Below are positions 32,647-56,944 of a stretch of DNA of 64,000 nucleotides, in pieces. Each line of letters opens with the position of its first letter. The first letter of the stretch is position 1. Source of the DNA: an uncultured Microthrixaceae bacterium (lineage in GTDB: Bacteria; Actinomycetota; Acidimicrobiia; Acidimicrobiales; VFJN01); assembly GCA_963715505.1 (NCBI GenBank), contig OY970242.1, positions 1,439,166 to 1,503,165 of the forward strand, in the 5' to 3' direction. The position numbers and the translations under genes are program-made. The notes below the pieces were generated by a model. The model made no database searches. It was not told the origin of the DNA and saw only the letters and a program-made list of their open reading frames with translations.

Positions 32647-34185
32647 TCACCCGAAGCGGTGGAGGTTCGCCGGCTCGAAGGCGTCGCCGGCGGTGGCGAG
32701 GATCGTGCCGGAGCGCCGTGCCCCGAGGTGGATCACGAGGGTCTCGCACTGCTCGGTGAAGGTGCGGTACGAGCCGTTCCACACCACCCACACCGCGCCC
32801 GGCCCAGCCCGCTCGATGGCCGCCTCCGCGAAGGCGACGGGATCCGCATCGGCGTTGCGCTGCGCGTAGTCCCGCCAGTCGACGAAGCGAGGATCGCCAC
32901 CCGCCGGGTAGGGCACCACCTCCACCGGCACGCCGCGCAGGGCGCGCTCGAGGCTCGGGCCGAGCTGGTCGGGACAGGCGACGACCACGTCGCCCGGGCT
33001 GGCCCCCGCAGCGATGGTGTCGCCCAGGTCCTGGACCTGCGTGCGCGCATCGACGGCGTTGTGCGCGATGCCGACGACGGCGAGGCCCAGCAGGGCAGCG
33101 GACAGCCCCCACCGCAGCCAGCCGCCCGACAGGCGCGTGAGCCCGATCGCCGCGACCAGCAGCACCACCGGGACCACCACCGACGCGTAGCGCGAGGCGT
33201 AGGCGCCGCCGGCGGCGTACCCCGCCAAGGTCCCCAGCGCCAGGGCCGTCCCGACCACGACCAGCTCGTCGCGCACGAGGGGCACGACGCGGTCGCCGAG
33301 CTCGACCGCCGCCCCGGCGCGCGCGCTCGGCCGTGCGAAGGCGGCGAGGAGCACGAGCACCACCACGGCGATGCCGTAGAGGCGGGCCTCGGCGAAGCCG
33401 CCCCCGCCGAGGTCGGCGAGGGTCACGTCGACGATCGTCGTCGGTCGCGACGGGCTCGCCCATGGCGTGCCGGTGTGGGCCGCCTGGTCGACGAAGACCC
33501 CCAGCCACGCGACGAACGTGGTGCTGCCCAGGGCGATGGCGGAAGCGGCGGCCAGCGTCGCGCGCCGCCGTGCCGGCTGGCGCCACCACCGCATCACGAG
33601 CAGGCCGCCCGTCGCGGCGATGAGGTACAGCGCCCAGTAGTGCGTCCACAGCAGGGCCGCGGCGATGCCGGCGAGGAGCACCACGTCGAGGGTGCGGGGC
33701 GTGCTGAGGACCCGGGCCAGCACGACGTAGCCGGCCGCCACCAGGAACATCACGAGCGCGTACATGCGCGCCTCGGTGGCGTAGCGCACCGCGAACGGCG
33801 ACAGGGCGAGGACGACGACCGCCCACGCGGCACCGCCTCGGCCAGCCATGCGGCGGCCCGCTGCCCAGGCGAGCGGGAGCGTGGCGACCGAGAGCAGCCC
33901 GGAGAGCGCCCGCACGGCGACGTCGCCGTCACCGAACAGCGACATCCAGCCGTGCAGCAGCCAGTAGTAGAGCGGCGGGTGTCCGTCGTGGCGCAGCGCA
34001 TCGGGGATGTCGCCGACCGGCAGAGAGGCGATGTTGACCGACAGCGCCTCGTCGAGCCACAGCGGCGACGTGGTGAGGAACCGCGCCACGATCCCGAGCA
34101 CCACCGCGGCCACGACGGCGGCCGGCAGGAGCCCGCTTCGCAGCGCGGATCGCCCGCTCGGCGGGAGGGGTTCGGTCGGCGGCAT
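32647..34185 (-). CDS. GT39/PMT_2-like polytopic membrane glycosyltransferase (ArnT/PMT family)
   Basis: ATG at 34183-34185 (alternative GTG at 34200). LWLDEALSVNIA...GHPPLYYWLLHGW and about 10 hydrophobic segments, followed by a soluble C-terminal domain. Confidence 0.8.
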   Translation of the reverse strand: MPPTEPLPPSGRSALRSGLLPAAVVAAVVLGIVARFLTTSPLWLDEALSVNIASLPVGDIPDALRHDGHPPLYYWLLHGWMSLFGDGDVAVRALSGLLSVATLPLAWAAGRRMAGRGGAAWAVVVLALSPFAVRYATEARMYALVMFLVAAGYVVLARVLSTPRTLDVVLLAGIAAALLWTHYWALYLIAATGGLLVMRWWRQPARRRATLAAASAIALGSTTFVAWLGVFVDQAAHTGTPWASPSRPTTIVDVTLADLGGGGFAEARLYGIAVVVLVLLAAFARPSARAGAAVELGDRVVPLVRDELVVVGTALALGTLAGYAAGGAYASRYASVVVPVVLLVAAIGLTRLSGGWLRWGLSAALLGLAVVGIAHNAVDARTQVQDLGDTIAAGASPGDVVVACPDQLGPSLERALRGVPVEVVPYPAGGDPRFVDWRDYAQRNADADPVAFAEAAIERAGPGAVWVVWNGSYRTFTEQCETLVIHLGARRSGTILATAGDAFEPANLHRFG

Positions 34186-34296
34186 GGCGCCATACCTCAC
34201 TCGATCCGGCCTGGTCGTGTCGACCCGGTCGATGCGTGGTGCGCCGGCGGGGCACCACTACGCTCGGGCGCCACGCCTCACGCCCTGGACGGACCC

Positions 34297-35835
34297 TTGA
34301 CCACCACTGCACCCCTGCCCCAGCACGACGACGGGCGGCCCGCCGATCCCGGCGCGGTCGTCGTGATCGGCGCGGGCCCTGCGGGGCTGACCGCGGCCTA
34401 CGAGCTCGGCAAGCGCGGCGCCACCGCCACCGTCCTCGAGGCCGACGACGTCGTCGGGGGCATCAGCCGAACCGTGGTGGCCGACGGCTACCGCTTCGAC
34501 ATCGGCGGCCACCGGTTCTTCACCAAGGTCGCCGAGGTGGAGGCCCTCTGGCACGAGATCCTCCCCGACGAGGACTTCATGCTGCGGCCTCGGTCGAGCC
34601 GCATCTACTACGGCGGCAAGTTCTACGACTACCCGATCCGTCCGCTCAACGCGCTGCGCAACCTTGGCGCGGTGGAGGCGGTGCGCTGCGTGCTGTCGTA
34701 CCTCTGGGTGCGCGTGCGGCCCCCGAAGGACCAGTCGTCGCTCGAGGGGTACATCGCCGCCAACTACGGCTGGCGCCTGTACCAGCACTTCTTCAAGACC
34801 TACAGCGAGAAGGTGTGGGCGGTGCCCGCCTCGGACATCTCGGCGGAGTGGGGGGCGCAGCGCATCAAGGGCATGTCGCTGCTGAGCGCCGTCTGGGAGC
34901 CGCTGCGGGCCCGCGTCGCCGGCGCGCGGCGCGACCGGGCGAAGCAGGTCACCAGCCTGATCGAGCAGTTCCAGTACCCGAAGTACGGGCCCGGGATGAT
35001 GTGGGAGCGCTGCCACGCACTCGTCGAGGCGCAGGGCTCGAAGGTCCACCTGGGGGCGCGGGTCACCGCCATCGGCCACGGCGGCGGACGTGCCAGCTCC
35101 GTGACGGCGCAGGACGCGTCCGGTGCGGCCTCGACCCACGCGGCGGACCACGTGATCTCCTCGATGCCGTTCCCCGCGCTGCTGCGGGCGATGGACCCGC
35201 CGGTGCCTGCCGAGGTGCAGGCGGCGGCCGACGACCTCACCTTTCGTGACTTCCTCTCCGTGGCCCTCGTCGTCCCGGCCGACAAGGTGGCCTGGGACGA
35301 CAACTGGATCTACATCCATGCGCCCGAGGTCAAGACGATGCGGGTGCAGAACTTCGGGTCCTGGTCGCCGCACCTGGTGAAGGACGGCCGCAACGTGCTG
35401 GGCCTCGAGTACACCGTCACCGAGGGCGACGAGTGGTGGACCGCCACCGACGAGGAGCTGATCGAGAAGGGCAAGGCCGAGCTGGAGCTGCTCGGGCTCA
35501 TGCGCAGCGCAGACGTCGAGGCCGGCTACGTCGTGCGGATGCCCAAGGCGTACCCCGTCTACGACGAGGACTACCGCACCAACGTCGAGGTGCTGCGGGC
35601 ATGGCTGGCAGCGAACGCGCCGAACGTGCACCCCGTCGGCCGCAACGGCATGCACAAGTACAACAACCAGGACCACTCGATGTACACGGCGATGCTCACC
35701 GTCGAGAACCTCTTCGGCGCCTCGCACGACATCTGGGACGTGAACGTCGACGACGAGTACCACGAGGAGTCCTCCTCGGGCACCGGCGAGCGGGGCACCG
35801 GCCGCGACGCTCCCGTGCTCCCCAAGCGCTCCTGA
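34297..35835 (+). CDS. NAD(P)/FAD-dependent oxidoreductase (amine-oxidase/UDP-galactopyranose-mutase-like fold)
   Basis: TTG at 34297 is the best in-frame start before the dinucleotide motif VVVIGAGPAGLTAAYEL. GGHRFFTK is also present. The upstream 700 codons of ORF 32146..35835 are the antisense shadow of the GT39 gene. Confidence 0.8.
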   Translation: MTTTAPLPQHDDGRPADPGAVVVIGAGPAGLTAAYELGKRGATATVLEADDVVGGISRTVVADGYRFDIGGHRFFTKVAEVEALWHEILPDEDFMLRPRSSRIYYGGKFYDYPIRPLNALRNLGAVEAVRCVLSYLWVRVRPPKDQSSLEGYIAANYGWRLYQHFFKTYSEKVWAVPASDISAEWGAQRIKGMSLLSAVWEPLRARVAGARRDRAKQVTSLIEQFQYPKYGPGMMWERCHALVEAQGSKVHLGARVTAIGHGGGRASSVTAQDASGAASTHAADHVISSMPFPALLRAMDPPVPAEVQAAADDLTFRDFLSVALVVPADKVAWDDNWIYIHAPEVKTMRVQNFGSWSPHLVKDGRNVLGLEYTVTEGDEWWTATDEELIEKGKAELELLGLMRSADVEAGYVVRMPKAYPVYDEDYRTNVEVLRAWLAANAPNVHPVGRNGMHKYNNQDHSMYTAMLTVENLFGASHDIWDVNVDDEYHEESSSGTGERGTGRDAPVLPKRS

Positions 35836-35847
35836 CCCTCGTCGCCG

Positions 35848-37782
35848 TCAGCCGCGGCGCTCGAGGGGGGCGACCGCCACGGTGAGGGTCCCGCGGTCGC
35901 GCTGGCGGGCGAGCAGCGCCCAGCGCCGGAGCAGCTCGCCGTGCTCGCCCGGCGCGGACAGCTGGCCCCGCACCACGGCGTCGGCCACCACGCCCGGGTG
36001 GTCCAGGAGGCCGGGATCGAGCGACCCGTCCGGGCCGGGCTGCAGCAGGGCCAGATCCGCCGGGTCCTGCCGGCGGCCGCGGTCGGTGAGGCGCACGTCG
36101 CCGTGGCGCGCCATCGCCCGCACGCGTCGCCGCAGCTCCGCCTCGGTGCGCGCCGCGTCCGGGGTCAGCCCCTCGACGGCCGCCAGGACGCGCGCGCCGG
36201 CGGGCAGGGCCGGGCCTGGCCCCTGGAGGACCAGGAGGCGGGCCCGCTCCTGGCCCTCGGCCCGCCGGCCCTCGCCGAGCTGTCGCACCAGGCCCTCGTC
36301 GTCGACCACGACCTCGATGCCGTGCCGATCGAGCTCCATCACGACCGCGATGCTGTAGGGCTCGAACACCCGCAGCACCTCCTCGTCGAGCAGCAGCGGC
36401 CCGCTCACCTCGGCGGTCTCGAGCTGCGGCGCGACGGCGTGCAGCACGGGCGCCGCGTCGTCGTCCGCCGTTGGCCCGACCGCCTGCCGGTGACGTCCCA
36501 GCGAGGCCCCCACCAGGACCACGACGGCGAGGACGGCGGTCGTCTGCAGGGCGCGGGCGTGGCGCTCCCCGGCGAGGGCGGCGACGCCGAGGGCAGCCGT
36601 GAGCACGCCGAGGGGCCAGAGCCAGCGAACCTGGTGGACGGCGAAGCCGTAGGCGCTGAGCGGCAGGATGGCGATGGTGACGAGGCCGGCGACGAGGGCC
36701 GCGCCGAGGACCGCGGCCGCCGCTGCCCAGCGACGCTCCCCGCGGCGCCATGCCATCGCACCCGCCAGCACCAGCCCTGCCAGCAGGGTGGCCAGGGCGG
36801 CCAGGCCGCCCGCCGTCGACGGCACGCCGCGCAGCGCATCCACCCCGCCACCGCTGCCCACCTCCTCGAAGCGCGAGGCGAACTCGGACCGGCCCCAGCC
36901 CGGGACGGGGCCGATGACCGACGTCAGCACCCGTGCCGCGTCGGCTGCGCCGACCGCCGCTTCCTCGCCTGCCGTCGCGGCGCGCGCCAGTCGGGCCAGG
37001 TTGCCCTCGCCGGGCCCGGCGAGCTGCTCGGCCACGGGCTGCGCCCATGCCAGGGCGCCGACCGCCACGCTCGCCAGGAGCCACCGCCGCCAGCGCCGGC
37101 GATCTGGTGCACCGCGGCCGTGCAGGACCACGAGCGCGGCGCCGGCGACGAGCAGCACGACCGGCACGAGCAGCACGTAGGGCAGGTGCGTCTGCACGAG
37201 GAGCGATCCGACGCCGACCGCACCCGCCAGTGCCGCACCCCGTCCTGCCGCGGCCGACCAGGCGAGCACCACGAAGGCCAGGAACGGCAGGAGCAACGCG
37301 TGCGGCTGCCAGGGGTCGACGAGGAGCGCCGAGCCCATCGACCAGCTCAGCGCCGCGACGGCGCTGGCGACCACCAGCGCACCCGTGGCCCCCGCGGTGC
37401 GCCACCCGACGAGCACCGCGGTCACCGCGCTGGCCGACGCCAGCAGCGCCGTGCCGACCATCGGGCCGAGCACGGGGTCGATCCTGGCGGGGATCGCGAG
37501 GACGTCGAAGAGGAGCGGGCCGGGGTTGTTGACCTGGATCCCCGTGCTGCGCGACGACGAGCTCCACGTGCCGAGCCACGGGTGGTGACCGCTCAGGACG
37601 TCGCGCGCTCGGAGCGAGAAGTAGGCGTTGTCGCCGACGGGGTACCACCCGTCGCGCACGGCCCACAGCACGGCCGTGGCGATGGGGGCGAGCACCAGCA
37701 CCAGCAGCGCAGCCAGCCAGACCGCGCTCGGCACGGCGAGGCCGAGCCGCCCAGGCCTCGCCGGGCGCGCCGTGGCCGTCAC
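35848..37782 (-). CDS. polytopic membrane protein A (644 aa), putative GT-C-type glycosyltransferase; paralogue of the upstream gene
   Basis: Its GTG at 37780-37782 overlaps the upstream TGA (GTGA). Multi-TM N-terminal half with NNPGPLLFDVLAIPAR, DPWQPHALLLPF and VQTHLPYVLL, then a soluble C-terminal half. Confidence 0.8.
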   Translation of the reverse strand: MTATARPARPGRLGLAVPSAVWLAALLVLVLAPIATAVLWAVRDGWYPVGDNAYFSLRARDVLSGHHPWLGTWSSSSRSTGIQVNNPGPLLFDVLAIPARIDPVLGPMVGTALLASASAVTAVLVGWRTAGATGALVVASAVAALSWSMGSALLVDPWQPHALLLPFLAFVVLAWSAAAGRGAALAGAVGVGSLLVQTHLPYVLLVPVVLLVAGAALVVLHGRGAPDRRRWRRWLLASVAVGALAWAQPVAEQLAGPGEGNLARLARAATAGEEAAVGAADAARVLTSVIGPVPGWGRSEFASRFEEVGSGGGVDALRGVPSTAGGLAALATLLAGLVLAGAMAWRRGERRWAAAAAVLGAALVAGLVTIAILPLSAYGFAVHQVRWLWPLGVLTAALGVAALAGERHARALQTTAVLAVVVLVGASLGRHRQAVGPTADDDAAPVLHAVAPQLETAEVSGPLLLDEEVLRVFEPYSIAVVMELDRHGIEVVVDDEGLVRQLGEGRRAEGQERARLLVLQGPGPALPAGARVLAAVEGLTPDAARTEAELRRRVRAMARHGDVRLTDRGRRQDPADLALLQPGPDGSLDPGLLDHPGVVADAVVRGQLSAPGEHGELLRRWALLARQRDRGTLTVAVAPLERRG

Positions 37783-39638
37783 TCCACGCTCGTACCGGGA
37801 GCCGCCACGAACACGGCGGTCGGGACCCCGAGCTGGAGCATCTTCGCCATCCGCAGCTGCGTCGCGAACGGCACCCGCACGTCGATCGACGCCGTGAAGA
37901 GGTTCTCGTCGAGGTGCGGGACCAGCTCGGCCAGGCCGGCGGCCTCGAGGTCGTCGACCACCCGGGTGCGCAGCAGCGCGAGCTCGGCGTCGTCGGCCGC
38001 CGAGCGGGGATCGACCCGCGCCACCTCGACGGCGCCGGGCAGAGCCCGCCAGGCGTCGATGGCGGCCTCGCCGGTGACGAGCACCACCCGCGCGGTGGCC
38101 TCGGCGTCGGTGAGGGTCCGCTGCGGGGTGGCCGGCACCCGGTAGAGCGGCGCGGCCCCGACGTCGAAGCCGCGGCGCTCGAGCTCGCTGAGCAGCCCAT
38201 AGCCCTGGGAGCCGATGTGGGTGCTGTCGTCCCAGACGACGAGGTAGCGGCCGGCGTCCCCGTCGGCCGCCCCGGTGCCGGCCTCGAGGGCTGCCGCCGT
38301 CGGTGCCACGAGCGGGGCGAGGACGGCAGAGAGCTCGTGGTCGGAGCGGGACGCGCCGGGCGCGTCGAGCGCCAGGCGGGCCGAGGCCGCGACGGCGACG
38401 GCGGCCAGGCACACCGCACCGATCCGACCGGCCCGGCGCGCCCGGTCCGGTGGCAGCGCGCGGCTCGCCCAGGTCGCCGCCGTCGAGATGGTGGCGAGCA
38501 CCATCAGCGCGGCGACGCCCCAGATCCACAGCATCAGGTAGAACCACATGAACCCGAAGATGCGGCTCACCGCCAGCACCGCGAGCAGGAGCGCCACGGC
38601 GACGACGGCGTGGAGGAGCAGCAGGCGCCGGTCGCGCAGCCAGACCGCGCCGGCCACGGCCAGCACCCAGACGGCGAGCACCGCCTGGCCGCGCCCGGGG
38701 CTGGCGGGGCGGTCCAGCGATCCGGGCACGAGCACCCCCGGCTCCGCCGACCCGTCGGTGACGACGTGGACGACGTCGAGGCGCCGGCTCACCTCGGTGA
38801 CGGCCTCGGCGACGCCGGCCGGGACCTCGCCCTCGGGCGGGGTGACGAGGTGCTCCACGATCATCCGGTAGTTGCCCGGGTCGTTGGTGAGCTGGTCGAT
38901 CGTCGGTGGCGCCCACAGGACGACCCCGACGACGGCGGCCAGGGCGCCCCACCGCAGCGCCCGGCGCCGCGTCGCGGCAGCGGGCGCGGAGCGCACGGCG
39001 ACCAGCCAGGCGAGCGCGGCGAGGGCCCCGAGCCCGAGGCACAGCGCGAGGTAGGGGACGTGCGTCTGGGCGCAGAACGAGGCGGCAGCCACGGCGACGG
39101 GCAGCATGAGCAGGTCGCCGCAGGCCACCGACCACACGGCGAGCAGCACCACGATCCACCACAGCAGCGGCAGGTAGGGGTTCCACGGCTCGCTGAGTGC
39201 GGTCACGCCGTAGCCGAGGCTCAGCACGGCGAGCATCGCAGCGGTGCCCAGCGCCAGCGTGCGCCCGCCGCGCCGGGCGGCGATGGCGAGCGCTGCCGCG
39301 ATGGCGCCGACGTGCAGCACCACGGCGGCCACCACCATCGACCACGCCGACGAGCCGAGCAGCCGGTAGGTCGGCGCCAGGAGGTAGAAGCTGAGCGGAC
39401 CAGGGTGGCTCCCCTGACGCTCGAAGGTGCCGATCCGCCCCGGCAGACCGACGAGGGGCGTGTCGGCGCCGCCGACGTCGCGCAGGCGAAGCTCGGTCAT
39501 CGCCAGGTCGAGGACCGGCATCCAGACGGGCCGGCGCATCGTCACGGCGGCGACGACGAGGGGCAGCGCGACGACGGCGAGGAGGCCGGCCAGGAGCGGC
39601 CGGGGCGCTCCCTGGCGTGCTGCGGTCAGCGCAGCCAC
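37779..39638 (-). CDS. polytopic membrane protein B (619 aa), putative GT-C-type glycosyltransferase
   Basis: GTG at 39636-39638 (13-nt overlap with the upstream gene). Motifs SHPGPLSFYLLAPTYR, EPWNPYLPLLWW and AQTHVPYLAL align with protein A. Confidence 0.8.
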   Translation of the reverse strand: MAALTAARQGAPRPLLAGLLAVVALPLVVAAVTMRRPVWMPVLDLAMTELRLRDVGGADTPLVGLPGRIGTFERQGSHPGPLSFYLLAPTYRLLGSSAWSMVVAAVVLHVGAIAAALAIAARRGGRTLALGTAAMLAVLSLGYGVTALSEPWNPYLPLLWWIVVLLAVWSVACGDLLMLPVAVAAASFCAQTHVPYLALCLGLGALAALAWLVAVRSAPAAATRRRALRWGALAAVVGVVLWAPPTIDQLTNDPGNYRMIVEHLVTPPEGEVPAGVAEAVTEVSRRLDVVHVVTDGSAEPGVLVPGSLDRPASPGRGQAVLAVWVLAVAGAVWLRDRRLLLLHAVVAVALLLAVLAVSRIFGFMWFYLMLWIWGVAALMVLATISTAATWASRALPPDRARRAGRIGAVCLAAVAVAASARLALDAPGASRSDHELSAVLAPLVAPTAAALEAGTGAADGDAGRYLVVWDDSTHIGSQGYGLLSELERRGFDVGAAPLYRVPATPQRTLTDAEATARVVLVTGEAAIDAWRALPGAVEVARVDPRSAADDAELALLRTRVVDDLEAAGLAELVPHLDENLFTASIDVRVPFATQLRMAKMLQLGVPTAVFVAAPGTSVE

Positions 39639-40645
39639 TTCAACGCCTTGAGCAGGCCGAGCTTGACCGGCGACTGGTGCTGCGAGCGACCCTCGCCGCT
39701 GAGCTCGTCGCGGTGCTGCAGGAACCACTCGTAGGACTCGATCACCATCGAGGCGTTGCTGTGCCGCGGTGCCCAGCCGAGCTCCTCCTGCGCCCTGGTC
39801 GTGTCGAACCACAGCGACTCGCCGTAGAGCAGCCAGTGGTACGGGGCGAAGGGGCCGAGGCCCGCGGCAGACAGCGCGCGCATCGCCAGGCGCGCCGGGG
39901 CCATCGGCACCGACCGCACGCGCGACCCCGTGGCCGCCGCCCGGCACAGCTCCTCGAGCGTGTCGCGCATCGTGCCGAACTCGGCGGCGCCGATGTTGTA
40001 GTCGGCGGGACCGGCGCGGCCGCCCGCCGCCAGGCAGGCGGTGGCGAGGTCGTCGGCGTGGACGAGCTGGTAGCGGTTCGCTCCCCCGTCGAACACGAAG
40101 ACCGCTGCGCCCTCGGCCACGAGCTCGAAGAGGATCGCCATGAGGCCCAGCCGCCCGTGGCCGAGGATCGTGCGCGGGCGAACGATCGAGACGTCGAGTC
40201 CGTCGTCGACGGCGCGGCGGCACAGGGCCTCCGCCTCGAGCTTGGCCCGGCCGTAGGCCTCGAGCGGTCGAGGTGGGGTCCGCTCGTCGACCGGGTTGGC
40301 GTCGGGGATCCCGTAGACGGCGCTCGTGGAGGTGTGGACGACCTTGCCCACACCGGCGTCGCGGGCGGCGAGGAGGACGTTGGCCGTGCCGACGACGTTC
40401 ACCGACCAGAAGAGGTGGCGGTCCTTGGCGAGGGGCACCTGCGCCACGTTGTGCAGCACGACGTCGACGCCCTCGCTGGCGGCGCGCACGGCCGCGAGGT
40501 CGCGCACGTCGGCCTGGATCGTCTCGGCGCCGGCCGGGCCGGGGTTGAGGTCGAGCACCCGCACCACGTCGCCGCGGGCGAGCGCCCGCTCGACGAGGAT
40601 CGAGCCGAAGTAGCCGCTGCCGCCGGTGACGAGGACGGTGCTCAC
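39626..40645 (-). CDS. NAD-dependent epimerase/dehydratase (extended SDR), paralogue 2
   Basis: Its GTG at 40643-40645 overlaps the upstream TGA. VTGGSGYFG (GxxGxxG) and YGRAKLEAE (YxxxK). Confidence 0.85.
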   Translation of the reverse strand: MSTVLVTGGSGYFGSILVERALARGDVVRVLDLNPGPAGAETIQADVRDLAAVRAASEGVDVVLHNVAQVPLAKDRHLFWSVNVVGTANVLLAARDAGVGKVVHTSTSAVYGIPDANPVDERTPPRPLEAYGRAKLEAEALCRRAVDDGLDVSIVRPRTILGHGRLGLMAILFELVAEGAAVFVFDGGANRYQLVHADDLATACLAAGGRAGPADYNIGAAEFGTMRDTLEELCRAAATGSRVRSVPMAPARLAMRALSAAGLGPFAPYHWLLYGESLWFDTTRAQEELGWAPRHSNASMVIESYEWFLQHRDELSGEGRSQHQSPVKLGLLKALKWLR

Positions 40646-43459: not shown

Positions 43460-43466
43460 CGAGCGG

Positions 43467-44405: not shown

Positions 44406-44420
44406 TACCCTTCCGCCTCG

Positions 44421-46069: not shown

Positions 46070-46099
46070 TCGCGGCTGGCGGCGCGGACGACCGGTAGC

Positions 46100-48298: not shown

Positions 48299-48509
48299 CA
48301 GCGACCTGGTGGGGCGCCCGCCGTGCTCGCGGTCGAGCGAGGGCGATCGTGTGGGCGTCGTCGTGGCTCCCGGGTCGAGTGCGTCCGGGATCCCGGACGG
48401 CGAGGTCCTAGAGTACGGAGGGCCTGGCCGCCGTCGCAACGACCGTCGGGGCCCCCGTCCCCGAGCCGCCGTGCACACCGACACCTCACCCACCGCCGCC
48501 CACGCACGC

Positions 48510-49644
48510 ATGCGCGAGGACGCCGATCGAGCCGGGATCCGGCGCATCCACGTCTTCGCCTTCCGAGACCGCGACGACCCCGAGGCCGGCGGGTCCGAGG
48601 AGCATGCCCACCAGGTCTGCCGCCACCTGGCGCTCGCCGGGCGCGAGGTCACCCTCCACACCGGTCGGGTGCCCGGCGGCCCGCGCGAGCTGCGGCGCGA
48701 CGGCTACCGGGTGGTCCGGCGGGGTGGCCGCTACGGGGTGTTCGCAGCGTCGGTGCTCGACGAGTGGCGCGGCCGCCTCGGCCCGGCCGACGGCCTCGTC
48801 GAGATCTTCCACGGCGTGCCGTTCTTCGCGCCGCTGTGGTCGCGCCGGCCCCAGGTCGGGATGGTGCACCACGTCCACCTCGGCACCTGGGGCATGCTCC
48901 TCCCGGGCCTTCCGGGCCGGGCCGGGGAAGCCGTCGAGCGCCATCTGGTCCCGCGCGTCTACCGTCGCCGCGCCCTCGTGACCGCTGCGGAGTCCGCACG
49001 TGACGAGATGGTCGAGCGCTACGGGATCGCCCCGGACCGGATCGCCCTCGCGCCCCACGGCATCGACCCGCGCTTCTCGCCCGGCGGCGCCCGCAACCCC
49101 GCGCCGCTCGTCGTCGCCGTCGCCCGCCTCATGCCCCAGAAGGGCGTCGACGACCTGCTCCGAGCGCTGGTCGACGTGCAGCGGCAGGTACCAGGGCTCG
49201 AGGCGGTGATCATCGGCGACGGGCCGCACCGCGCCGCGCTGGAGGCCACCGCCCGCGCCTTGCACCTGGAGGGCGCCGTCACCTTCGCCGGCCGCGTCGA
49301 CGACGCCGCGCTGCTCGACTGGTACCGACGCGCCTGGGTCGTCGCCAGCGCCTCGAAGGCCGAGGGCTTCGGTCTCACGCTCACCGAGGCCGCCGCGTGC
49401 GGCACCCCCGTGGTCGCCACGCGCATCCCCGGCCACGTCGACGCGGTGGACGAGGGCGCCGGCGGCCTGCTGGCCGGCACGACCGCCGAGCTGGGCCAGC
49501 TCCTCACCAAGGTGCTCCTCGACGGGGATCTGCCGCGCCGAGCTGGCTCGCGGCGCCCGCGAGCACGCCGGGCGCTTCCGGTGGGACGAGTCCGCCGAGC
49601 TGCTGCTGCGCGCCCTCGTCGACGAGGCCACCCGGCGGCGATGA
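48510..49644 (+). pseudogene. GT4-family glycosyltransferase, one frameshift near 49533
   Basis: ATG at 48510. EGFGLTLTEAAACGTPVVATRIPG (the EX7E region). After ...VLLDGDL the natural C-terminus RAELARGAREHAGRFRWDESAELLL...RRR* lies in another frame, and its stop overlaps the next ATG (ATGA at 49641-49644). Confidence 0.8.
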
Positions 49645-52600
49645 GCCGCCTCCGGCCGCGCGCCCTCGCCGCCGCGGCCGACCTCGTCGTCCTCGGGAGC
49701 ATCACCCTGCTCCCCCAGCTCCTCGGTGGTCGCGGGCGGCTCAACGCCGACACCAAGCAGTACCTCTACCTCGATCCGGGCTCGCTGCTGGAGCGGTCGC
49801 GGCACGTCTGGGACCGCCAGGTGGGCGGCGGCACGGTCACCCACCAGGCGATCGGCTACCTCTGGCCCACGGGCCCCTACTACTGGGCCACCGACGCGCT
49901 CGGCATCCCCGACTGGGCCGCGCAGCGGCTCTGGGTCGGGGGCATCCAGCTCGTGGCGGCGCTGGGCGCCCTGGCCCTGCTGCGCCACCTCCTCCCCCGC
50001 CACCCGGTCCTGCTGGTCCCCGCCGCGCTCTACGGCCTCTCGCCGGTCGTGCTCGGTCACGTGACCGGCCAGTCCGCGCTGCTCCTGCCCTTCGCCGCGC
50101 TGCCCTGGCTGGTGCTGGTCATGGCCCGGGCCGTCGAGGAGGGCGGGTGGCGCTGGCCCGCCGTGTTCGCGCTGATCGTGGGCTCGTGCGGCTCGCTCAA
50201 CGGCAGCTCGGTGTTCTTCGTGCTCCTCGCGCCGGTCCTGTGGGTGCCGTTCGCGGTGGGCAGCCTCCGCGCCGCGACGCCCCGCGCCGGGATGGCGGCG
50301 CTGGGCAGGGCCGGTGCCCTCACCCTGGCCTGCCAGCTCTGGTGGCTGGGCGCCTACGCGGTCGGCGGCGCCAGCAACCTGCCGATCCTGGCGCTCACCG
50401 AGAACGTCCAGACCACCTCCTACACGGCCTCGGCCGCGGAGATCCTGCGCGGCCTGGGCTACTGGTTCTTCTACGGAGGTGACAGCGAGGGTCCGTGGCT
50501 GTCGAGCATCGCGATCCCCTACGTGCGCTCCCTGCCCCTGGTCGTGGTGACCTTCGCGCTGCCCATCGCCGCGCTCGCCCTCGGCGCCGCCGTCCGCTGG
50601 CCCCCACGCGCCTACTTCGCGCTGCTCGTCGGCGTCGGCACGGTGATCGCCGCCGGCGCGTTCCCCGAGCCGGCGCGCAGCCCGCTCGGCGCGGCGTTCG
50701 AAGCCGCCAGCCGGCGCTCGGACCTCGTCCTCAGCCTCAGGAACACCCAGCGCGCCACGCCGCTCGTCGTGCTCGGCCTCGCCGGCCTCGCCGCCGCCGG
50801 CCTGACGGCGCTGCGCCGGCGGCACCGCGGGGCGGGGGCCGGGGCGGCGCTGGTCCTCGCCGTCCTCGTCGTGGCCGCCCTCCCCGGGCAGTGGCGCAGC
50901 GGGCTGATCGCCGACCGCTTCCACCGCGAGGAGCTCCCCGACGAGTGGCGAGCCGCCATGGCGCACCTCGACGAGGGCTCCGGGCGCATCCTCGAGCTGC
51001 CGGGCATCGACTTCGCGTCCTTCCGGTGGGGCCACACCCTCGATCCCGTGTCGGTCGGCCTCACCGACCGCCCGGTCCTCGCTCGGGAGCTGGTGCCCAT
51101 GGGCGGCCTGCCGGGCGCCTCGTTGCTCGGCGCGCTCGACCGCAGCTTCCAGGAGGGATGGGCCGAGCCCGCGGCGCTGGCGCCGGTCGCCCGTCTTCTG
51201 GGCGCCACCGACGTCCTCGCCCGCAACGACCTCGAGTACGAGCGCTACCGCACGGTCCGCCCGGCGTTGTTCTGGGCGACGGTGTCCGACCCTGCCGCCG
51301 GGCTCGGCACGCCGGCGATGTTCGGCCCGCGCCTGCCCAACCGGGCCGGCCCGGCGCGACCGATGATCGACGAGATCGAGCTGGGCCTCGACGCCGACGC
51401 GCCCGTGCCGCCCGAGGTCGCCGTGCTTCCGGTGCCCGGCGGTGGGCGCGCCGCGCTCTCGACGCTGCCCGTCGAGGGCGCTCTCGTGGTGGACGGCGAC
51501 GGCGAGGGCCTGGTGCACGCCGCCGCGGCCGGGGTGCTCGACGGCGTCGACGGGGCCGTGCTGCTCGCGGCCGACCTCGTGCGTGCCGGTGGCCGCCTCG
51601 ACGAGCTGCTGTCCGACTCGTCACGGCTGCTGCTCACCGACTCGAACCGCAAGCGCGCCTTCCGCTGGTACTCGCTGCGCGAGAACGCCGGCGCCACGGA
51701 GCCCCTCGACCACCGGGCTGCGATCGACGACCCGTCCGACACGCGCACACCCCTCGTGGAGGGCCAGCCACCCGACGCGCAGACCACGGTGGACTGGCGC
51801 GGCGCCGAGCGCGTGTGGGCGTCGCGCTACGGCTCGGGCTTCACCCTCCTCGCCGAGGAGCGCCCCGTGCTGGCCTTCGACGGCGATCGCTCCACCGCAT
51901 GGCGCGTCGAGCACGTTCGCGCTGCCGGGGCCGCACGAGATCGGCATCGAGCTCGACCGGCCCAGCGACGCCGACCACGTCGTCCTCGTGCCGCCCCAGG
52001 GCCGGCCCGGTTCCCGGCCGGTCACCCGGGCGCGGATCACCCTCGACGGCGAGCGCAGCGTCGACGTCTCGCTCACACCGGAACAGGCCCGTCGCCCGGA
52101 GGGGGCTCGGGTGGCGCTCGACGGGCGGCCCTTCGAGACGCTGGAGGTGCGGATCCTGGGGGTCGACCCCGACGACGGCCCGGCCGGGTTCGCGGAGGTG
52201 TCCATCCCGGGCATCACCGTCGAGGAGGTGGTGGTGCTCCCCACCGCGCTCATGGACGCGCTCGGCGAGCGCGCCGACGGGATGCCCACGAGCATCGTGC
52301 TGACCCGCCTCCGGGCCGACCCCGCCGAGCCGGTGCGGGCGGATCCGGAGACGGCCCTGCGTCGGGCCTGGCAGCAGCCCGCCGCGCTCGCGCTCGAGCT
52401 CTCCGGCACGGCGCGCCTCTCGCCCCGCGCCGACGACGCCACCCTCGACGCGCTGCTGGGGATTCCGTCCCGGGCACGCGCCAGCGAACGGCTCCCGGGT
52501 GACCTCGACGCGCGCGGCGCGTCCGCGATCGACGGCGATCGCAGCACCGCATGGACGACGCCGTTCGTGGGGCTCACCGGCCAGGCCCTCGAGGTCGACC

Positions 52601-53934
52601 TCGGCGCCGACGCCGAGGTCGCGGAGCTCACGGTCGGGGTCGTCCACGACGACCGCCACAGCGCACCCACCCAGCTGCTGGTGTCCGCCGACGAGGGCGA
52701 GGCCATCTCCGTCGACGTGCCGGACCTCGGACCGGTCGGGGAGCGTGGCTCGGTGCGGGACGTGACCCTCCGGCTGCCCCGCGCCGTGCAGGGCACGACG
52801 CTGCGCGTCGAGATCGGCGCCGTCGAGCCACGCCACACCACCGACTGGTACTCCGGCGAGCCCATCGCCCTGCCTGTCGCCCTCGCCGAGCTGCGCGTGC
52901 CGGGGAGCCCGGTGGCGGTCCCGATGCCGCCCGAGCGCTTGGACTCCGGCTGCCGCGACGACCTCCTCACCCTCGACGGCGCCCCCCTGGCCGTGCGCAT
53001 CACCGGAACCAGCGACGACGCCCTCGCCCGCCGCGGGCTCGACGTCGCCCCGTGCGGGCCCGGGCCGCTGGCGCTGGCGGCGGGCTCCCACGAGCTGCGG
53101 GCAGCGCCGGGCGCTCGCAGCGGACTCGACCTGGACCGCCTGGTGCTGGCGACGCCCGGCTGGCAGGCCGCTGCAGGCACGGCGGCGGCCCCGACGGTCG
53201 AGGTCAGCGCGTCCGGCCCCGTCTCCCACGAGGGCGTCGTCACCGGACACGACGGGGCGCCCTTCTGGCTCGTGCTCGACCAGAGCGTCAACGAGGGCTG
53301 GGAGCTCGACGTCGACGGCGCGAGCGTCGACGGCCCGAGGCCGATGGGCTCCTACGCGGGCGCCTGGTACGTGCAGCCCGACGGGCCCGACCCCCTGGCC
53401 GTGTCGGCGACCTACGGGCCCCAGCGCGCCATCGACCTGGCGCTGGTGGCGTCGGCCCTCGCGGCTGCTGCCTGCCTCCTGCTCGCGCTCGGGGCCACCC
53501 CCCTGGGGCTCCTCCGCCGCCACCCTCGCCGGTCCGGGCGGCCGCGGGCGACCAGCAGGGCGATCGTGGGCCCGCAGCGCGCGGTGGCGGCCGGCAGCAC
53601 CGGCTACCACGCCGAGCTCGGCGTGGTAGGCAGCGGGCCGTCGTGGTGGGCGGTCGCGGGCCTCGCGGTCGTGGCCGCCCTGGCCGTGCACCCCCTCGCC
53701 GCCGTGGCGGTGGCGGGCGCGGCGGCGCTGGCTCGCCGCTGGCCCGCCCTCGGCCGGGTGGTGCCCGTCGCCCTCGTTGCCGCCGCGGGCGCCGGCGTGG
53801 CGGCCCTGCAGCTGCGCTACGGCCACGAGCTGACCTCGCGCTGGCCGTCGCGCTTCGGCTTCGCCCACCTGGTCTGCCTCGGGGCGGTCGTCCTGCTGGC
53901 GGGACTCGCCGTGGCCGAGCGCGACGACCGGTAG
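49641..53934 (+). pseudogene. AftD-like alpha-(1->3)-arabinofuranosyltransferase-family giant membrane protein (~1430 aa), one frameshift near 51910
   Basis: N-terminus ADTKQYLYLDPGSLLERSRHVWDRQVGGGTVTHQAIGYLWPTGPYYW (DUF3367/AftD signature) and more than 10 TM segments. Two discoidin-like modules (FDGDRSTAW at ~51880, IDGDRSTAW at ~52530). C-terminal TM bundle. The frame switches from ORF 48006..52502 to ORF 51442..53934. Confidence 0.8.
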
Positions 53935-53944
53935 GTTCGTCGCC

Positions 53945-54619
53945 GTGCCCGCCACCGTCGCCCTCGTCCACGGCTTCGCCACGTCCAGCGCTCGCACCTG
54001 GGGCGACAACGGCTGGCTCGACCTGCTCGCCGACCTCGGACGCGCGACGCTGCCGATCGACCTGCTCGGCCACGGCAGCGCCGACAAGCCGCACGACGCC
54101 ACCGCCTACGACGCGATGGAGGCCCTCGTCGCCGAGCAGCTCCCCCCGGAGCCCGTCGACGCGGTGGGCTTCTCGCTCGGCGCCCGCGTCCTGCTCACGC
54201 TCGCCACCGAGCGGCCCGAGCGGTTCGAGCGCCTGGTGCTGACGGGCGTCGGCGCCAACCTGCTCCGCAGCGACCCGAACGACCTCGTGCTCCGAGCGAT
54301 CGAAGGAGAGGGCGACCCGACCAACCCGGTCGTGCAGTACTTCGCCGGCCTCGCCCAGCACCCCGAGGTCGACCGGGCCGCGCTGGCGGCCTGCCTGCGC
54401 TCGCGGCGCCCGGCGCTCACCCCGGAGCGTCTCGCCCGGGTCGATCTGCCGGTGCTCGTCGTGATCGGCGACAAGGACTTCGCCGGACCCGGCGAGCCGC
54501 TCGCCGAAGCCCTGCCGAACGCGCAGCTCGTCACGCTGCGCAACGTCGACCACTTCGCGACGCCGAAGGACTTCGGCTGCATCGACGCCGTGCTCGACTT
54601 CCTCGGGGCGACCCCGTGA
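53945..54619 (+). CDS. alpha/beta-fold hydrolase
   Basis: GTG at 53945. VALVHGF, GFSLGA (GxSxG) and C-terminal NVDHF. Confidence 0.8.
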   Translation: MPATVALVHGFATSSARTWGDNGWLDLLADLGRATLPIDLLGHGSADKPHDATAYDAMEALVAEQLPPEPVDAVGFSLGARVLLTLATERPERFERLVLTGVGANLLRSDPNDLVLRAIEGEGDPTNPVVQYFAGLAQHPEVDRAALAACLRSRRPALTPERLARVDLPVLVVIGDKDFAGPGEPLAEALPNAQLVTLRNVDHFATPKDFGCIDAVLDFLGATP

Positions 54620-55284
54620 GCACCGACTTCGTGCTCGGCGTCGACCTCGACGGCGTGTGCGGCGACTACACCGCCGCCTTTCGGGCCGTGGTGGCCGCCG
54701 ATCGCGGCATCGACCCCGCCACGCTCGACGACGCGCGCTCGTGGGACTTCGGGGAGTGGGGCATCACCGGCCCCGACGACTTCGACCGGCTGCACCGCCT
54801 CGCCGTCCTCGAGCATCGGATGTTCCGCCACATGCCCGCCCTGCCGGGCGTCGCCGAGAGCCTCTGGCGGCTCTCCGACGCCGGGGTGTGGATCCGCATC
54901 ATCACCCACCGGCTCTGCGTCAACTGGGGGCACGCCGTCGCGGTGGGCGACACGGTCGCCTGGCTCGACGAGATGGGCATCCCCTACCGCGACATCTGCT
55001 TCCTGGGCGCCAAGCCCGAGGTCGAGGCGCAGTGCTACGTCGACGACGCGTCGCACAACGTCGTCGCGCTGCGCGCGGCGGGCAACCACGTCATCGTCTA
55101 CGACGCGCCCTACAACCAGGACGTCGAGGGGCCCCGCGCCCGCTCGTGGGCCGAGGTGGAGGCGCTGGTGACCGAGCGCGCCGCCGCCATCGGCACGCCC
55201 CTGCAGGGCCAGCTCCCCGGCCTCGACGCCGGCGCCGACCGCCTCACCCGACGCGTCAGCACCCAGGACCGCTCGATGCCCTAG
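54616..55284 (+). CDS. HAD-superfamily 5'(3')-deoxyribonucleotidase-like (NT5C) phosphatase
   Basis: Its GTG at 54616 overlaps the upstream TGA. HAD motif I is GVDLDGV. 222 aa. Confidence 0.7.
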   Translation: MSTDFVLGVDLDGVCGDYTAAFRAVVAADRGIDPATLDDARSWDFGEWGITGPDDFDRLHRLAVLEHRMFRHMPALPGVAESLWRLSDAGVWIRIITHRLCVNWGHAVAVGDTVAWLDEMGIPYRDICFLGAKPEVEAQCYVDDASHNVVALRAAGNHVIVYDAPYNQDVEGPRARSWAEVEALVTERAAAIGTPLQGQLPGLDAGADRLTRRVSTQDRSMP

Positions 55285-55772
55285 GTGTTCTGGACGGTGA
55301 GGCCGCCGTCGACCGCGATCACGGCGCCGGTGAGGTACGACGACGCCGGCAGCACCAGGCCGAGCGTGATGTGGGCGACCTCCTCGGGGTCGCCGTAGCG
55401 GCGCAGCGGGACGCGCCGTCGGGCGAACCTCACCTTGGCGTCGTCGGCGATCAGGGCCGTCATGCCGGTGTGGATCGGCCCGGGGCAGACGCAGTTCACG
55501 GTGACGCCGCTGGGGCCGAGCTCGACATCGATCGCAGCGTCGAGCGCGGCGGCGTCGGCGACGTCGACGGGGACCGCCACGGCACGGCCGCCGGCGCCGA
55601 CGATCCGCGCGGCGACCGCCCCTGCCCCGTCGCCGTCGCGGTCGAGGACCGCCACCGCGGCGCCCTCGTCGGCGAGCAGGTACGCCGTCGCCGCGCCCAT
55701 GCCGCTGGCGGCGCCGGTCACCACCGCGACCTTGCCCGCGATCGACCGGCTGAGGGTGCTGAGCCGCGCCAT
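55281..55772 (-). CDS. short-chain dehydrogenase remnant with an in-frame internal deletion (163 aa, catalytic core missing)
   Basis: TGAASGMG and VDVAD are followed directly by ELGPSGVTVNCVCPGPIHT...AVDGG. The NNAG, catalytic Ser and YxxxK segments (about 85-90 aa) are absent. The junction lies at ~55523-55526. Confidence 0.7.
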   Translation of the reverse strand: MARLSTLSRSIAGKVAVVTGAASGMGAATAYLLADEGAAVAVLDRDGDGAGAVAARIVGAGGRAVAVPVDVADAAALDAAIDVELGPSGVTVNCVCPGPIHTGMTALIADDAKVRFARRRVPLRRYGDPEEVAHITLGLVLPASSYLTGAVIAVDGGLTVQNT

Positions 55773-55807
55773 GGTGCTGACCGTAGCGACACGGGTAGAA
55801 CCGTGCC

Positions 55808-56065: not shown

Positions 56066-56071
56066 CCCTCG

Positions 56072-56944
56072 TCAGCGGTCGCTGATCGACGCCGGCGGCG
56101 GGCCGTAGCGCCCGCGCGCGTGATCGACGAGCGCCTGCACCCGGGCCCGCGCGTCGAAGTACGGCCCGCGCCGTGCCGGCACCGCCAGGCCGGCGAGTAG
56201 CTGACCGATCGCCAGCAGGCCGCGGATGGTCGCGTGGTAGCGCCCCGAGTGCTCGCGCACCAGCAGCATCGTGTTCCGCAGCTGCAGGTAGTCGATGACC
56301 GGCGTGCGGGTGCCCAGGTCGGGGTTGACGACGACCGCGCCGCGCACGAGCCCCGTCTCCCAGCCACGTCGGGCGGCCCGCAGCGCGAGGTCGGCCTCCT
56401 CGCAGTACGCGAAGTAGCGCTCGTCGAAGAGCCCCACCTCCTCGAGCACCTGGCGGCGGGCCAGCATCAGCGTGCCGTGCGGGTGACCTGCGGGCTGCCA
56501 GCCCTCCGCCACGGTGGCCGCGGCGAGGATGCCACCGAAGTAGGGGTCCACGACCGGGGTCGCGCCGTCGCCGAGATCGGCGCTGGCCAGCCCCGCGCGC
56601 GGGCGGCTGCCCGCCACCTCCAGCATCCACGCGAGGCACCCCGGCGCGGGCTCGGCATCGTGGGGGGCGAGCCCGACCCAGTCGCCGTCGGCGGGGTGCG
56701 GGTTGGCGAGGACGTGTCGGAAGCCGGCGTTGGCACCTGGACCGAAGCCACGGTTGCGGTCCAGCTCCACGAGCTCCACGCTCGGTGGCAGCCCGGCGCG
56801 CACCAGGGCCAGCGCATCGGGCCGCGACCCGTTGTCGACCACCACGACGCGCACGCCGCCCGGCACGTCCTGGGCGAGGAACCTGGCCACGGTGCCCACG
56901 CATCGCTCCGGCCGGTTCCAGTGGAGGATGACGACGGGGAGCAC
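56072..56944 (-). CDS. GT2-family glycosyltransferase (rhamnosyl/galactofuranosyl-transferase-like)
   Basis: GTG at 56942-56944 with GAGGAGGA 7 nt upstream. VVILHWNRPE, VVVVDNGSRPD and FAYCEEADL. Confidence 0.85.
   Translation of the reverse strand: MLPVVILHWNRPERCVGTVARFLAQDVPGGVRVVVVDNGSRPDALALVRAGLPPSVELVELDRNRGFGPGANAGFRHVLANPHPADGDWVGLAPHDAEPAPGCLAWMLEVAGSRPRAGLASADLGDGATPVVDPYFGGILAAATVAEGWQPAGHPHGTLMLARRQVLEEVGLFDERYFAYCEEADLALRAARRGWETGLVRGAVVVNPDLGTRTPVIDYLQLRNTMLLVREHSGRYHATIRGLLAIGQLLAGLAVPARRGPYFDARARVQALVDHARGRYGPPPASISDR

Follow-up and report, generated by a model that had tools for sequence, protein, structure and literature searches.

A conserved Acidimicrobiales gene cluster, probably for envelope-glycan assembly, with a small/GMC/SDR/SDR cassette in the DprE1/DprE2 position after UbiA

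Which lipid-linked pentose would be made by a gene cluster that keeps a decaprenylphosphoryl-5-phosphoribose (DPPR) synthase but has an unrelated cassette where DprE1 and DprE2 are expected? The question is raised by positions 32,647–56,944 of a 64,000-nucleotide (nt) stretch of contig OY970242.1 from an uncultured Microthrixaceae bacterium; the whole stretch is called the window here. DprE1 is a leading tuberculosis drug target, and DprE1/DprE2 are regarded as the standard route to lipid-linked arabinofuranose (Araf). A reading of the letters alone, the original prediction, had taken the region as a glycan assembly island rich in GT-C glycosyltransferases that builds an Araf- and/or mannose-containing wall glycan.

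Our answer, with a probability of roughly 0.6, is an Acidimicrobiales envelope-glycan assembly cluster in which a cassette of a small-protein gene, a GMC oxidoreductase gene and two short-chain dehydrogenase/reductase (SDR) genes would tailor lipid-linked ribofuranose. A polyprenyl-phosphate-dependent envelope glycan is well supported. The region encodes a DPPR-type UbiA, five GT-C proteins and a GT2 like dolichol-phosphate-mannose (DPM) synthases.

The window has a G+C content of ~75%, so raw lists of open reading frames (ORFs) are full of spurious frames. The gene map came from third-position GC (GC3) frame analysis and codon-usage scoring, followed by Pfam and NCBIfam scans. All 18 genes listed originally were found at or near their predicted places. 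Four of them are not single ORFs here: polyC, GT4, the AftD-like gene and the GT2-methyltransferase fusion each change frame part-way. Rfam and tRNA scans of the window gave no matches. The nearest UbiA relatives, with 59–67% identity, come from Acidimicrobiales and Microthrixaceae metagenome-assembled genomes (MAGs). The host is in the class Acidimicrobiia, so the analogy first drawn with Corynebacterineae is a distant one.

The genes at the centre of the question are the following.

43467–44405, minus strand: UbiA polyprenyl-phosphate 5-phosphoribosyltransferase of the DPPR synthase type (NCBIfam NF008978)
43112–43426, minus strand: orphan small protein of ~100 residues (104 in the window), always directly upstream of the GMC gene
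41691–43115, minus strand: GMC-family flavin adenine dinucleotide (FAD) oxidoreductase, 474 residues (GMC_oxred_N, E 6.1e-31; GMC_oxred_C, E 1.3e-17)
40642–41694, minus strand: epiB, extended SDR, 350 residues (Pfam Epimerase, E 5.1e-35; motifs TGAAGWLG and YGASK)
39626–40645, minus strand: epiA, extended SDR, 339 residues, the last gene of the cassette (Pfam Epimerase, E 3.9e-39; motifs TGGSGYFG and YGRAK)

UbiA passes the decaprenyl-phosphate phosphoribosyltransferase equivalog NF008978 with 335.7 bits against a cut-off of 207 (E 2.2e-100). Its translation holds YCLNDAADADADR, and NDAADADAD fits the NDxxDxxxD motif of cytoplasmic loop II, which mutagenesis has found to be needed for activity (PMC11127046). 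By this assignment the enzyme would move ribose-5-phosphate from phosphoribosyl pyrophosphate (PRPP) onto polyprenyl phosphate. In a tree, the UbiA proteins from loci of the GMC type group together as one clade, which is nested among those of DprE1-type Acidimicrobiales.

The longest ORFs of UbiA and the divergent polyC begin just 15 nt apart (44405–44421). Orthologue alignments start 4–25 residues inside both; both genes thus probably begin further in and share a larger promoter region. In the DprE1-type Acidimicrobiales loci L018–L022 and L045, a HAD gene of the PF12710 type overlaps the UbiA start, giving the order HAD-UbiA-DprE1-DprE2 (L022, 9384–9980); the arrangement corresponds, in split-gene form, to the HAD-UbiA fusion known from Citrobacter. 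A candidate PAP2-type phosphatase upstream of UbiA in locus L013 was rejected: the ORF lacks conservation and encodes no phosphatase.

By tblastn, a DprE1 homologue lies directly downstream of UbiA in 48 other Actinomycetota UbiA loci. An M. tuberculosis DprE1 sequence served as the probe, and Pfam validated the hits in L013. It gave no match in the window, in L001–L012 or in L066. In L013 and L021, an FAD_binding_4+ALO protein is followed by a classical SDR of 253–254 residues, that is, DprE2, whereas the window has two extended SDRs (339 and 350 residues) and not a classical one of ~250 residues. The cassette occupies the DprE1/DprE2 position after UbiA as a positional replacement, and it directly follows UbiA in 15 of the 16 loci that carry it.

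The cultured relative Actinospongicola halichondriae agrees with this. The published eggNOG table for strain Hal317T counts one DPPR synthase (K14136) and zero each of dprE1 and dprE2 (PMC12263773 Table S1). Among six related type strains in the same table, five have all three genes and one has none.

The cassette is tightly packed. Along the run of UbiA, small, GMC, SDR, SDR, polyB and polyA, genes overlap by 4–13 nt: the small, GMC and two SDR genes overlap each other by 4 nt, epiB doing so with each neighbour, and epiA overlaps polyB by 13 nt. The gap between UbiA and the small gene is 40 nt. The small gene, which lies between those of UbiA and GMC and was absent from the original list, recurs across 15 loci, its product carrying RLFRSLVLFGELEL as a C-terminal motif. 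The protein matches nothing in Pfam, NCBIfam or PDB, and its family is tiny, with 94 representatives among 1.84 billion proteins.

A homologue of the small protein, 39% identical, overlaps the start of a GMC gene on an unrelated mobile element. The small protein and GMC thus appear to be an obligate pair and, by the same sequence comparisons, a mobile two-gene unit. The element (L083, 7865–9594; L084, 6173–7902) carries an integrase, Prim-Pol, AAA_25, several transposases and a 473-residue GMC, without glycan genes.

GMC keeps both its FAD-binding motif and the motifs with the catalytic His and Asn: across 120 orthologues there is no variation in GxGxxG, in the active-site His (VHLTS) or in GVNPQ. 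It is a candidate oxidase of a lipid-linked pentose. The epiA family is one of NAD-dependent epimerases and 3-beta-HSD proteins, and its best NCBIfam matches, HpnA and OleD, are all under cut-off.

The synteny check that the original prediction had proposed shows a real, conserved gene cluster. The same genes in the same order occur in at least 17 other genomes or contigs, namely 13 GTDB loci, three metagenome contigs and A. halichondriae, so the clustering is not by chance. The order shared by the 13 loci is NT5C, hydrolase, AftD-like, GT4, GT2 and polyC on one side, and UbiA, small, GMC, SDR, SDR, polyB with its paralogues, PMT_2 and the FAD enzyme on the other. In the complete A. halichondriae genome, every gene from the polyA-like one through to the AftD-like one has the same place and strand as in the window, and all ORFs are intact.

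What might the cassette do? A UbiA-like synthase is known to make polyprenyl-phosphate ribofuranose, and the subsequent 5′-phosphatase can be a HAD domain (Kelly et al. 2024, PMC11127046). Auxiliary epimerases then set which pentofuranose the GT-C adds, DprE1/DprE2 leading to Araf and a single GalE-like SDR to xylofuranose; a lone SDR epimerase acting on undecaprenyl-phosphate ribofuranose has experimental precedent (PMC11127046). Our literature search found no work linking a GMC enzyme, a phosphoribosyltransferase and arabinofuranose.

We propose that the small/GMC/SDR/SDR cassette tailors the lipid-linked ribofuranose by FAD-dependent oxidation of a ring hydroxyl and then NAD(P)H-dependent reduction, which would follow the DprE1/DprE2 logic with unrelated proteins. 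By analogy, inversion at C2, C3 or both could come from a flavin oxidase working ahead of one or two keto-reductases. We hold the chances to be even that the cassette acts on the UbiA product. As to the pentose, we disfavour arabinose; forms of ribose, xylose or lyxose would all be possible.

The sugars would be transferred by five GT-C enzymes, as follows.

32647–34200, minus strand: GT-C of the PMT_2/ArnT type, 517 residues, at the left edge of the conserved cluster (Pfam PMT_2, E 6.7e-12)
35848–37782, minus strand: polyA, polytopic, 644 residues, polyB paralogue (no Pfam or NCBIfam match)
37779–39638, minus strand: polyB, polytopic, predicted GT-C fold, 619 residues (AlphaFold2 and Foldseek)
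44421–46069, plus strand: polyC, predicted GT-C fold, 548 residues once repaired (orthologue model and Foldseek; frameshift at ~45146)
49641–53934, plus strand: AftD-family GT-C, ~1430 residues, with periplasmic carbohydrate-binding modules (CBMs) and C-terminal transmembrane helices (PF11847; frameshift at ~51910)

The first had been called GT39/PMT-like, and its PMT_2 (PF13231) match bears out the PMT part but not GT39 specifically. Its gene adjoins that of the FAD enzyme in L081, L082 and a contig of Joint Genome Institute (JGI) sample 3300047160. The two paralogous polytopic proteins of the original prediction are indeed paralogues: polyA and polyB are 25–28% identical, and polyA has orthologues in L007 and L008.

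None of polyA, polyB and polyC has a sequence match in Pfam, NCBIfam or PDB, where profile searches returned noise, so fold prediction was needed. The AlphaFold2 model of polyB has a predicted local distance difference test score (pLDDT) of 91.2, and its Foldseek hits are ArnT 5f15 at the top (E 2.7e-5, probability 1.00), AftA, AglB, PglB, Pmt4, Emb and AftD. For polyC, whose orthologues are single ORFs of 543–560 residues, a 70%-identical orthologue was modelled with a pLDDT of 83.6 and found ArnT (2.9e-7), AglB, STT3, AftB, ALG12 and AftD with a probability of 1.00. The models thus give polyB and polyC a GT-C fold, and polyA is assigned the same fold as the paralogue of polyB.

In sequence these families are nearly silent. 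A borderline PMT_2 score is reached by just 6 of 33 polyB family members (5–6 of 32–33 in the polyB and polyC families overall), and one polyB orthologue is labelled 'ArnT family glycosyltransferase' by NCBI. The polyB and polyC families each have more than 1,600 homologues, nearly all named hypothetical. The three poly proteins are sizeable GT-C families without a Pfam model and, together with PMT_2 and the AftD-like protein, make up the five.

The AftD-like protein has the full AftD architecture, as expected from its length of ~1430 residues. Residues 30–686 match PF11847 (GT-C_AftD) with 264.2 bits against a cut-off of 26 (E 2.3e-78). CBM_AftD and F5/8 type C domains also match, the translation has hydrophobic C-terminal segments, and residues 14–1372 align to residues 42–1392 of M. 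abscessus AftD (6wbx). Some relatives, A. halichondriae included, have a second AftD-family paralogue inside the cluster (L081, 18348–21428; L085, 19342–21632); the window has one.

In M. abscessus AftD, K39, D41, E251, K361 and D474 are essential (published AftD study). By alignment, the AftD-like protein of every clade member has D41Y, K361R and E475P and keeps K39, E251 and D474, whereas the AftD-like proteins beside DprE1-type UbiA loci retain the mycobacterial residues. This altered signature co-occurs with the cassette. Such joint travel suggests a changed donor or acceptor.

For A. halichondriae, the published whole-cell sugar profile consists of rhamnose, ribose, mannose and galactose. 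Two of these, mannose and galactose, agree with the enzymes of the cluster that resemble DPM synthases and UDP-galactopyranose mutase (UGM). Ribose is uninformative, because in whole-cell hydrolysates it usually comes from RNA. The literature search returned no reports on cell-wall sugars or arabinogalactan of Acidimicrobiia.

These data bear on whether the product is after all a mycobacterium-like Araf wall glycan, arabinan with or without lipomannan, with GMC/SDR making polyprenyl-phosphate Araf, the AftD-like protein as the arabinofuranosyltransferase and the cluster's HAD protein in the Rv3807c role. Such a pathway would account for the DPPR-synthase equivalog, the complete AftD-family architecture and the cassette exactly where other genomes have DprE1/DprE2. 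It could draw on the coupling of a HAD to UbiA in other Acidimicrobiales and on the published HAD precedent for a phosphoribose phosphatase, and its mannan part on the DPM-synthase-like GT2 and the mannose of the cultured relative.

It is nevertheless unlikely. A. halichondriae carries the orthologous cluster and has no reported arabinose, and D41Y stands in every AftD-like protein of the clade, along with K361R and E475P, while DprE1-type neighbours keep the mycobacterial residues. Moreover, the HAD protein, by family an NT5C-type nucleotidase, is found at the island edge and is 77–89% conserved against 40–75% for glycan genes. The lack of arabinose in the cultured relative and the divergent AftD-like site together speak against a mycobacterium-like arabinan. 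With DprE1/DprE2 also missing from the window, the arabinofuranose part of the original prediction is unsupported, while its view of a gene set only partly orthologous to the mycobacterial one does.

A further thought is that the cassette, with its two SDRs of distinct stereochemistry, yields a pentofuranose donor new to glycans, for example D-lyxofuranose with C2 and C3 both inverted or a further modified pentose. The AftD-like site and the three GT-C families would be adapted to this donor, and a widespread group of uncultured Acidimicrobiia would have an undescribed envelope polymer. D-lyxofuranose has never been found (Kelly et al., PMC11127046). We rate this idea as decidedly speculative.

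Several observations weigh against a ribofuranose-tailoring cluster. The cassette and UbiA are separable: in locus L002, UbiA is directly followed by polyB without the cassette, and a 358-kb contig of JGI sample 3300047160 has the cassette and GT-C genes without UbiA between polyC and the small protein. The small+GMC pair also rides on the mobile element devoid of glycan genes. In the cluster, no phosphatase adjoins or is fused to UbiA, and Pfam scans of the island proteins or of the called genes of L081, L082 and L085 gave no flippase of the MATE or GtrA/SMR type. Neither arabinose nor xylose is reported among the whole-cell sugars of A. halichondriae. All substrate assignments come from homology and gene context, and the four frameshifts in the island could in principle be genuine.

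Two side observations concern the same loci. In L002 (5515–8246; an Acidimicrobiales MAG), the cassette and GT4 are both absent; in this naturally occurring form another pentose may be added, a situation comparable to the C. youngae O1/O2 serotypes. The JGI contig has an extra Methyltransf_24 gene and an RF-1-like gene inserted in the cluster.

Such separability would be expected if the donor were unmodified polyprenyl-phosphate ribofuranose, DprE1/DprE2 being lost and not replaced, and the cassette acted on another substrate such as a lipid-linked or nucleotide sugar or the polymer. Whole-cell ribose without arabinose or xylose would fit too, and extracytoplasmic ribofuranosylation from undecaprenyl-phosphate ribofuranose is established (PMC11127046). 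The hydrolysate ribose says little either way, however, and the cassette follows UbiA directly in all but one of its 16 loci, with its 4-nt overlaps and 40-nt gap. The altered AftD-like site goes with the cassette as well. We regard an unmodified donor as rather unlikely and retain the tailoring of lipid-linked ribofuranose as the preferred reading.

Is the cluster intact? Frame changes occur in four island genes, polyC (~45146), the GT2-methyltransferase fusion (~47740), GT4 (~49535) and AftD-like (~51910). The stitched proteins align as one in-frame segment to orthologues from seven related genomes. Since the orthologues stay in one frame across each junction, the breaks are real features of this sequence. 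These breaks, together with the internally deleted neighbouring SDR (55281–55772), could mean a decaying pseudogene cluster.

At least six further frameshifts lie outside the island, however, in housekeeping genes: a pyridoxal-phosphate decarboxylase (~7230), a DUF3151 protein (~8260), a patatin-like protein (~8780), a class III aminotransferase (~17150), an ABC permease (~25130) and an M18 aminopeptidase (~61290). Their density is alike, 4 in 24.3 kb inside and 6 in 39.7 kb outside, or roughly 1 per 6 kb, an indel rate typical of an unpolished long-read assembly. This equality points to assembly indel errors and not to gene decay.

The breaks are also easily mended. One single-nt edit gives a full ORF without further stops for each of polyC, AftD-like and the GT2-methyltransferase fusion. 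In polyC, one G is missing from a G5 homopolymer (~45144–45148), and adding it back recreates the invariant RGGRxLPLPPS motif; a 1-nt deletion restores AftD-like and a single-nt insertion the fusion. The repair script gave an ambiguous result for GT4, whose junction is based on three-frame translation alone. GC3 stays at ~0.95 downstream of every shift. The source contig is unannotated, and the comparable long-contig MAG L008 has the same kind of breaks. Hence, the frameshifts are most likely assembly errors and the real cluster intact, as judged from sequence; a pseudogene island is very improbable and was rejected on the equal density outside it.

The deleted SDR (minus strand, 163 residues) matches adh_short positions 1–68 and adh_short_C2 positions 159–236. 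About 90 residues are missing, including NNAG and the catalytic Ser/Tyr/Lys region, and its L066 orthologue is full length. Probably this is a real deletion or an assembly collapse.

The remaining genes that would serve the pathway or border it are these.

46100–46834, plus strand: predicted polyprenyl-phosphate hexose synthase GT2, 244 residues (Glycos_transf_2, E 1.4e-27)
46785–48340, minus strand: fusion of a polyprenyl-phosphate-sugar synthase-like GT2 with a SAM methyltransferase, 5′ end approximate (frameshift at ~47740)
48510–49644, plus strand: GT4 of the GT-B fold, cytoplasmic (Glycos_transf_1, E 4.7e-34; frameshift at ~49535)
34297–35835, plus strand: FAD enzyme, eukaryote-type UGM-like, 512 residues (NCBIfam NF005548 and UGM structures)
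53945–54619, plus strand: alpha/beta hydrolase, 224 residues, 10 nt after the AftD-like gene in the same operon (Abhydrolase_6/Abhydrolase_1, E ~2e-15)
54616–55284, plus strand: HAD phosphatase of the NT5C family, 222 residues, GTG start (PF06941, E 8.5e-36; DLDGV motif)
56072–56944, minus strand: peripheral GT2, 290 residues (Glyco_tranf_2_3, E 1.3e-10)
62683–63873, plus strand: LytR-CpsA-Psr (LCP) protein (TIGR00350, 119.5 bits; cut-off 62.3)

The 244-residue GT2, first described as Ppm1-like, has as its nearest solved relative the Pyrococcus DPM synthase 5mlz (E 7.8e-34, residues 3–240), with ArnC next (5.6e-12); its NCBIfam matches are all far under equivalog cut-offs. We take it as a predicted polyprenyl-phosphate-mannose synthase-like enzyme. 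The stitched fusion matches Glycos_transf_2 (E 2.3e-23) and Methyltransf_23 (E 4.8e-17), and intact fusions of 480–513 residues occur in L082, L085 and the JGI contig.

The run of GT4, AftD-like, hydrolase and HAD is joined by ATGA and GTGA overlaps. The GT4 stop overlaps the AftD-like start as ATGA, and the GT4 C-terminus runs on in another frame. The GTGA coupling of HAD to the hydrolase stop, noted originally, can be read directly in the sequence. The hydrolase has the same position in related loci with 77–86% identity.

The FAD enzyme scores 742 bits against NF005548 (cut-off 389), a model named only 'hypothetical protein'. By phmmer it matches the UGM structures 4dsg and 3ute over its full length (E ~5e-18), with residues 21–476 matching T. 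cruzi UGM (E 4.5e-18), and it is 75–80% identical across related loci. It is a candidate source of a furanose nucleotide sugar. A. halichondriae has galactose, and its count of the KEGG glf entry K01854 is 0 (PMC12263773 Table S1). The eukaryote-type UGM-like flavoenzyme could fill the glf role.

The HAD protein had been proposed as the 5′-phosphatase for polyprenyl-phosphate ribose-5-phosphate, the role of Rv3807c. It belongs to the 5′-nucleotidase family NT5C, whose enzymes hydrolyse 5′-phosphates of ribofuranosyl compounds, and has no sequence relative in PDB and no NCBIfam match. For this role speak its translational coupling in the GT4/AftD/hydrolase/HAD run, its conserved position in relatives, the PF12710-type HAD that overlaps the UbiA start in other Acidimicrobiales and the HAD-type 5′-phosphatase precedent (PMC11127046). 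Against it, the partner hydrolase is found close to DprE1-type UbiA loci as well, there among housekeeping genes; the HAD gene itself lies ~10 kb from UbiA in the AftD operon. The edge position, the nucleotidase family and a conservation far above that of the glycan genes weaken the case, so the role is plausible yet weakly backed, and less likely than not.

Put together, the steps might run as follows. On the cytoplasmic side, UbiA would form the polyprenyl-linked ribose-5-phosphate, a phosphatase, possibly the NT5C-type HAD, would remove the 5′-phosphate and the cassette would tailor the ribofuranose. In parallel, the DPM-synthase-like GT2 and the GT2-methyltransferase fusion would produce polyprenyl-phosphate hexose donors, the UGM-like flavoenzyme may provide a furanose nucleotide sugar and GT4 would work in the cytoplasm. 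The donors would then be flipped across the membrane. Outside it, the PMT_2-type protein, polyA, polyB, polyC and the AftD-like protein would transfer the sugars onto an envelope glycan or glycolipid.

On either side the cluster is bordered by unrelated genes. Those on the left code for a peptide ABC transporter, TetR, a cyclophilin and an acyl-CoA synthetase; on the right, conservon genes and those of an aminopeptidase and MsrB come before the LCP gene. The LCP ligase placed 6 kb beyond the island is thus there as an LCP domain gene, but those unrelated genes separate the two. The peripheral GT2 has weak NCBIfam matches, including GlfT1 with 25 bits against a cut-off of 330, and lies beyond the flanks of the related loci. 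The conservon-like set (56990–60122, minus strand; translations read by eye) comprises a sensor histidine kinase (57807–60122), a roadblock/LC7-type protein (57376–57810) and a DUF742-like protein (56990–57379). No cvnD-type GTPase follows it, the next gene on the same strand being the peripheral GT2.

With the LCP gene outside the conserved cluster, the cluster might chiefly glycosylate proteins or lipids, by O-mannosylation or as a lipoglycan, and not build a peptidoglycan-linked wall polysaccharide. The PMT_2-type GT-C and the DPM-synthase-like GT2 resemble the actinobacterial Pmt/Ppm1 pair, and the polar lipids of A. halichondriae include one glycophospholipid and two glycolipids. On the other hand, CBMs like those of the AftD-like protein are typical of polysaccharide-elongating enzymes, and five different GT-Cs and a GT4 suggest a complex glycan. 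We find this quite unlikely as the chief function, but it is compatible with the preferred reading, an envelope-glycan cluster with tailored ribofuranose.

The new point is that this clade retains a DPPR synthase and an AftD-type GT-C while an unrelated flavoenzyme-reductase cassette replaces DprE1/DprE2. If our reading is right, the clade would show how the DprE1/DprE2 step can be reinvented or the sugar diversified, and the principle that the auxiliary epimerase decides the pentofuranose would extend to the envelopes of Gram-positive bacteria. Acidimicrobiia are common in soil, sludge and marine samples; the envelope of this class is almost unstudied, and the cluster points to an uncharacterised glycan in it. 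Since the cluster is intact in the cultured A. halichondriae, the question is directly testable.

Compared with known systems, the cluster resembles the mycobacterial and corynebacterial decaprenyl-phosphate-arabinose pathway in its PRPP-type UbiA above cut-off, its full AftD-family GT-C with CBMs and its several GT-Cs. By predicted family, an oxidase flavoenzyme and then a nicotinamide-dependent reductase are likewise placed after UbiA. A UGM-like enzyme is nearby, as glf is near Rv3806c in mycobacteria. In place of DprE1, with its vanillyl-alcohol-oxidase fold, and DprE2 are a GMC-fold enzyme, a 100-residue orphan and two extended SDRs. The cluster has no PAP2 phosphatase or GtrA-type flippase, its other four GT-Cs are no orthologues of Emb or AftA-C, and the AftD-like protein bears D41Y, K361R and E475P. 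The host is of Acidimicrobiia, with a cultured relative without reported arabinose.

With the three-component pentofuranose systems (PMC11127046), it shares a synthase of the polyprenyl-phosphate-ribofuranose type together with GT-Cs in one locus and auxiliary epimerase-type genes. It differs in that the phosphatase is neither fused nor adjacent to UbiA, no MATE flippase is present and GMC with two SDRs stands in for DprE1/E2 or a single ORF13-type SDR. It is far bigger as well, holding five GT-Cs and drawing on several lipid-linked donors, and has the look of a primary glycan pathway and not of a side-chain modification.

Systems of Ppm1/DPM with GT-C mannosyltransferases, for lipomannan and lipoarabinomannan or protein O-mannosylation, are alike in the DPM-like GT2 beside PMT_2-related GT-Cs and in the mannose of the relative. 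Unlike in them, the NCBIfam equivalog is not reached, and the island yielded no PimA/PimB/PimE or MptA/B orthologues. The UbiA-DprE1-DprE2 clusters of other Actinomycetota (L034–L036, L045 and L058) have the AftD-like/GT4/UbiA linkage too; they keep DprE1/DprE2 and the mycobacterial AftD residues, whereas the clade of the window changed both. This common linkage shows an ancestral actinobacterial module.

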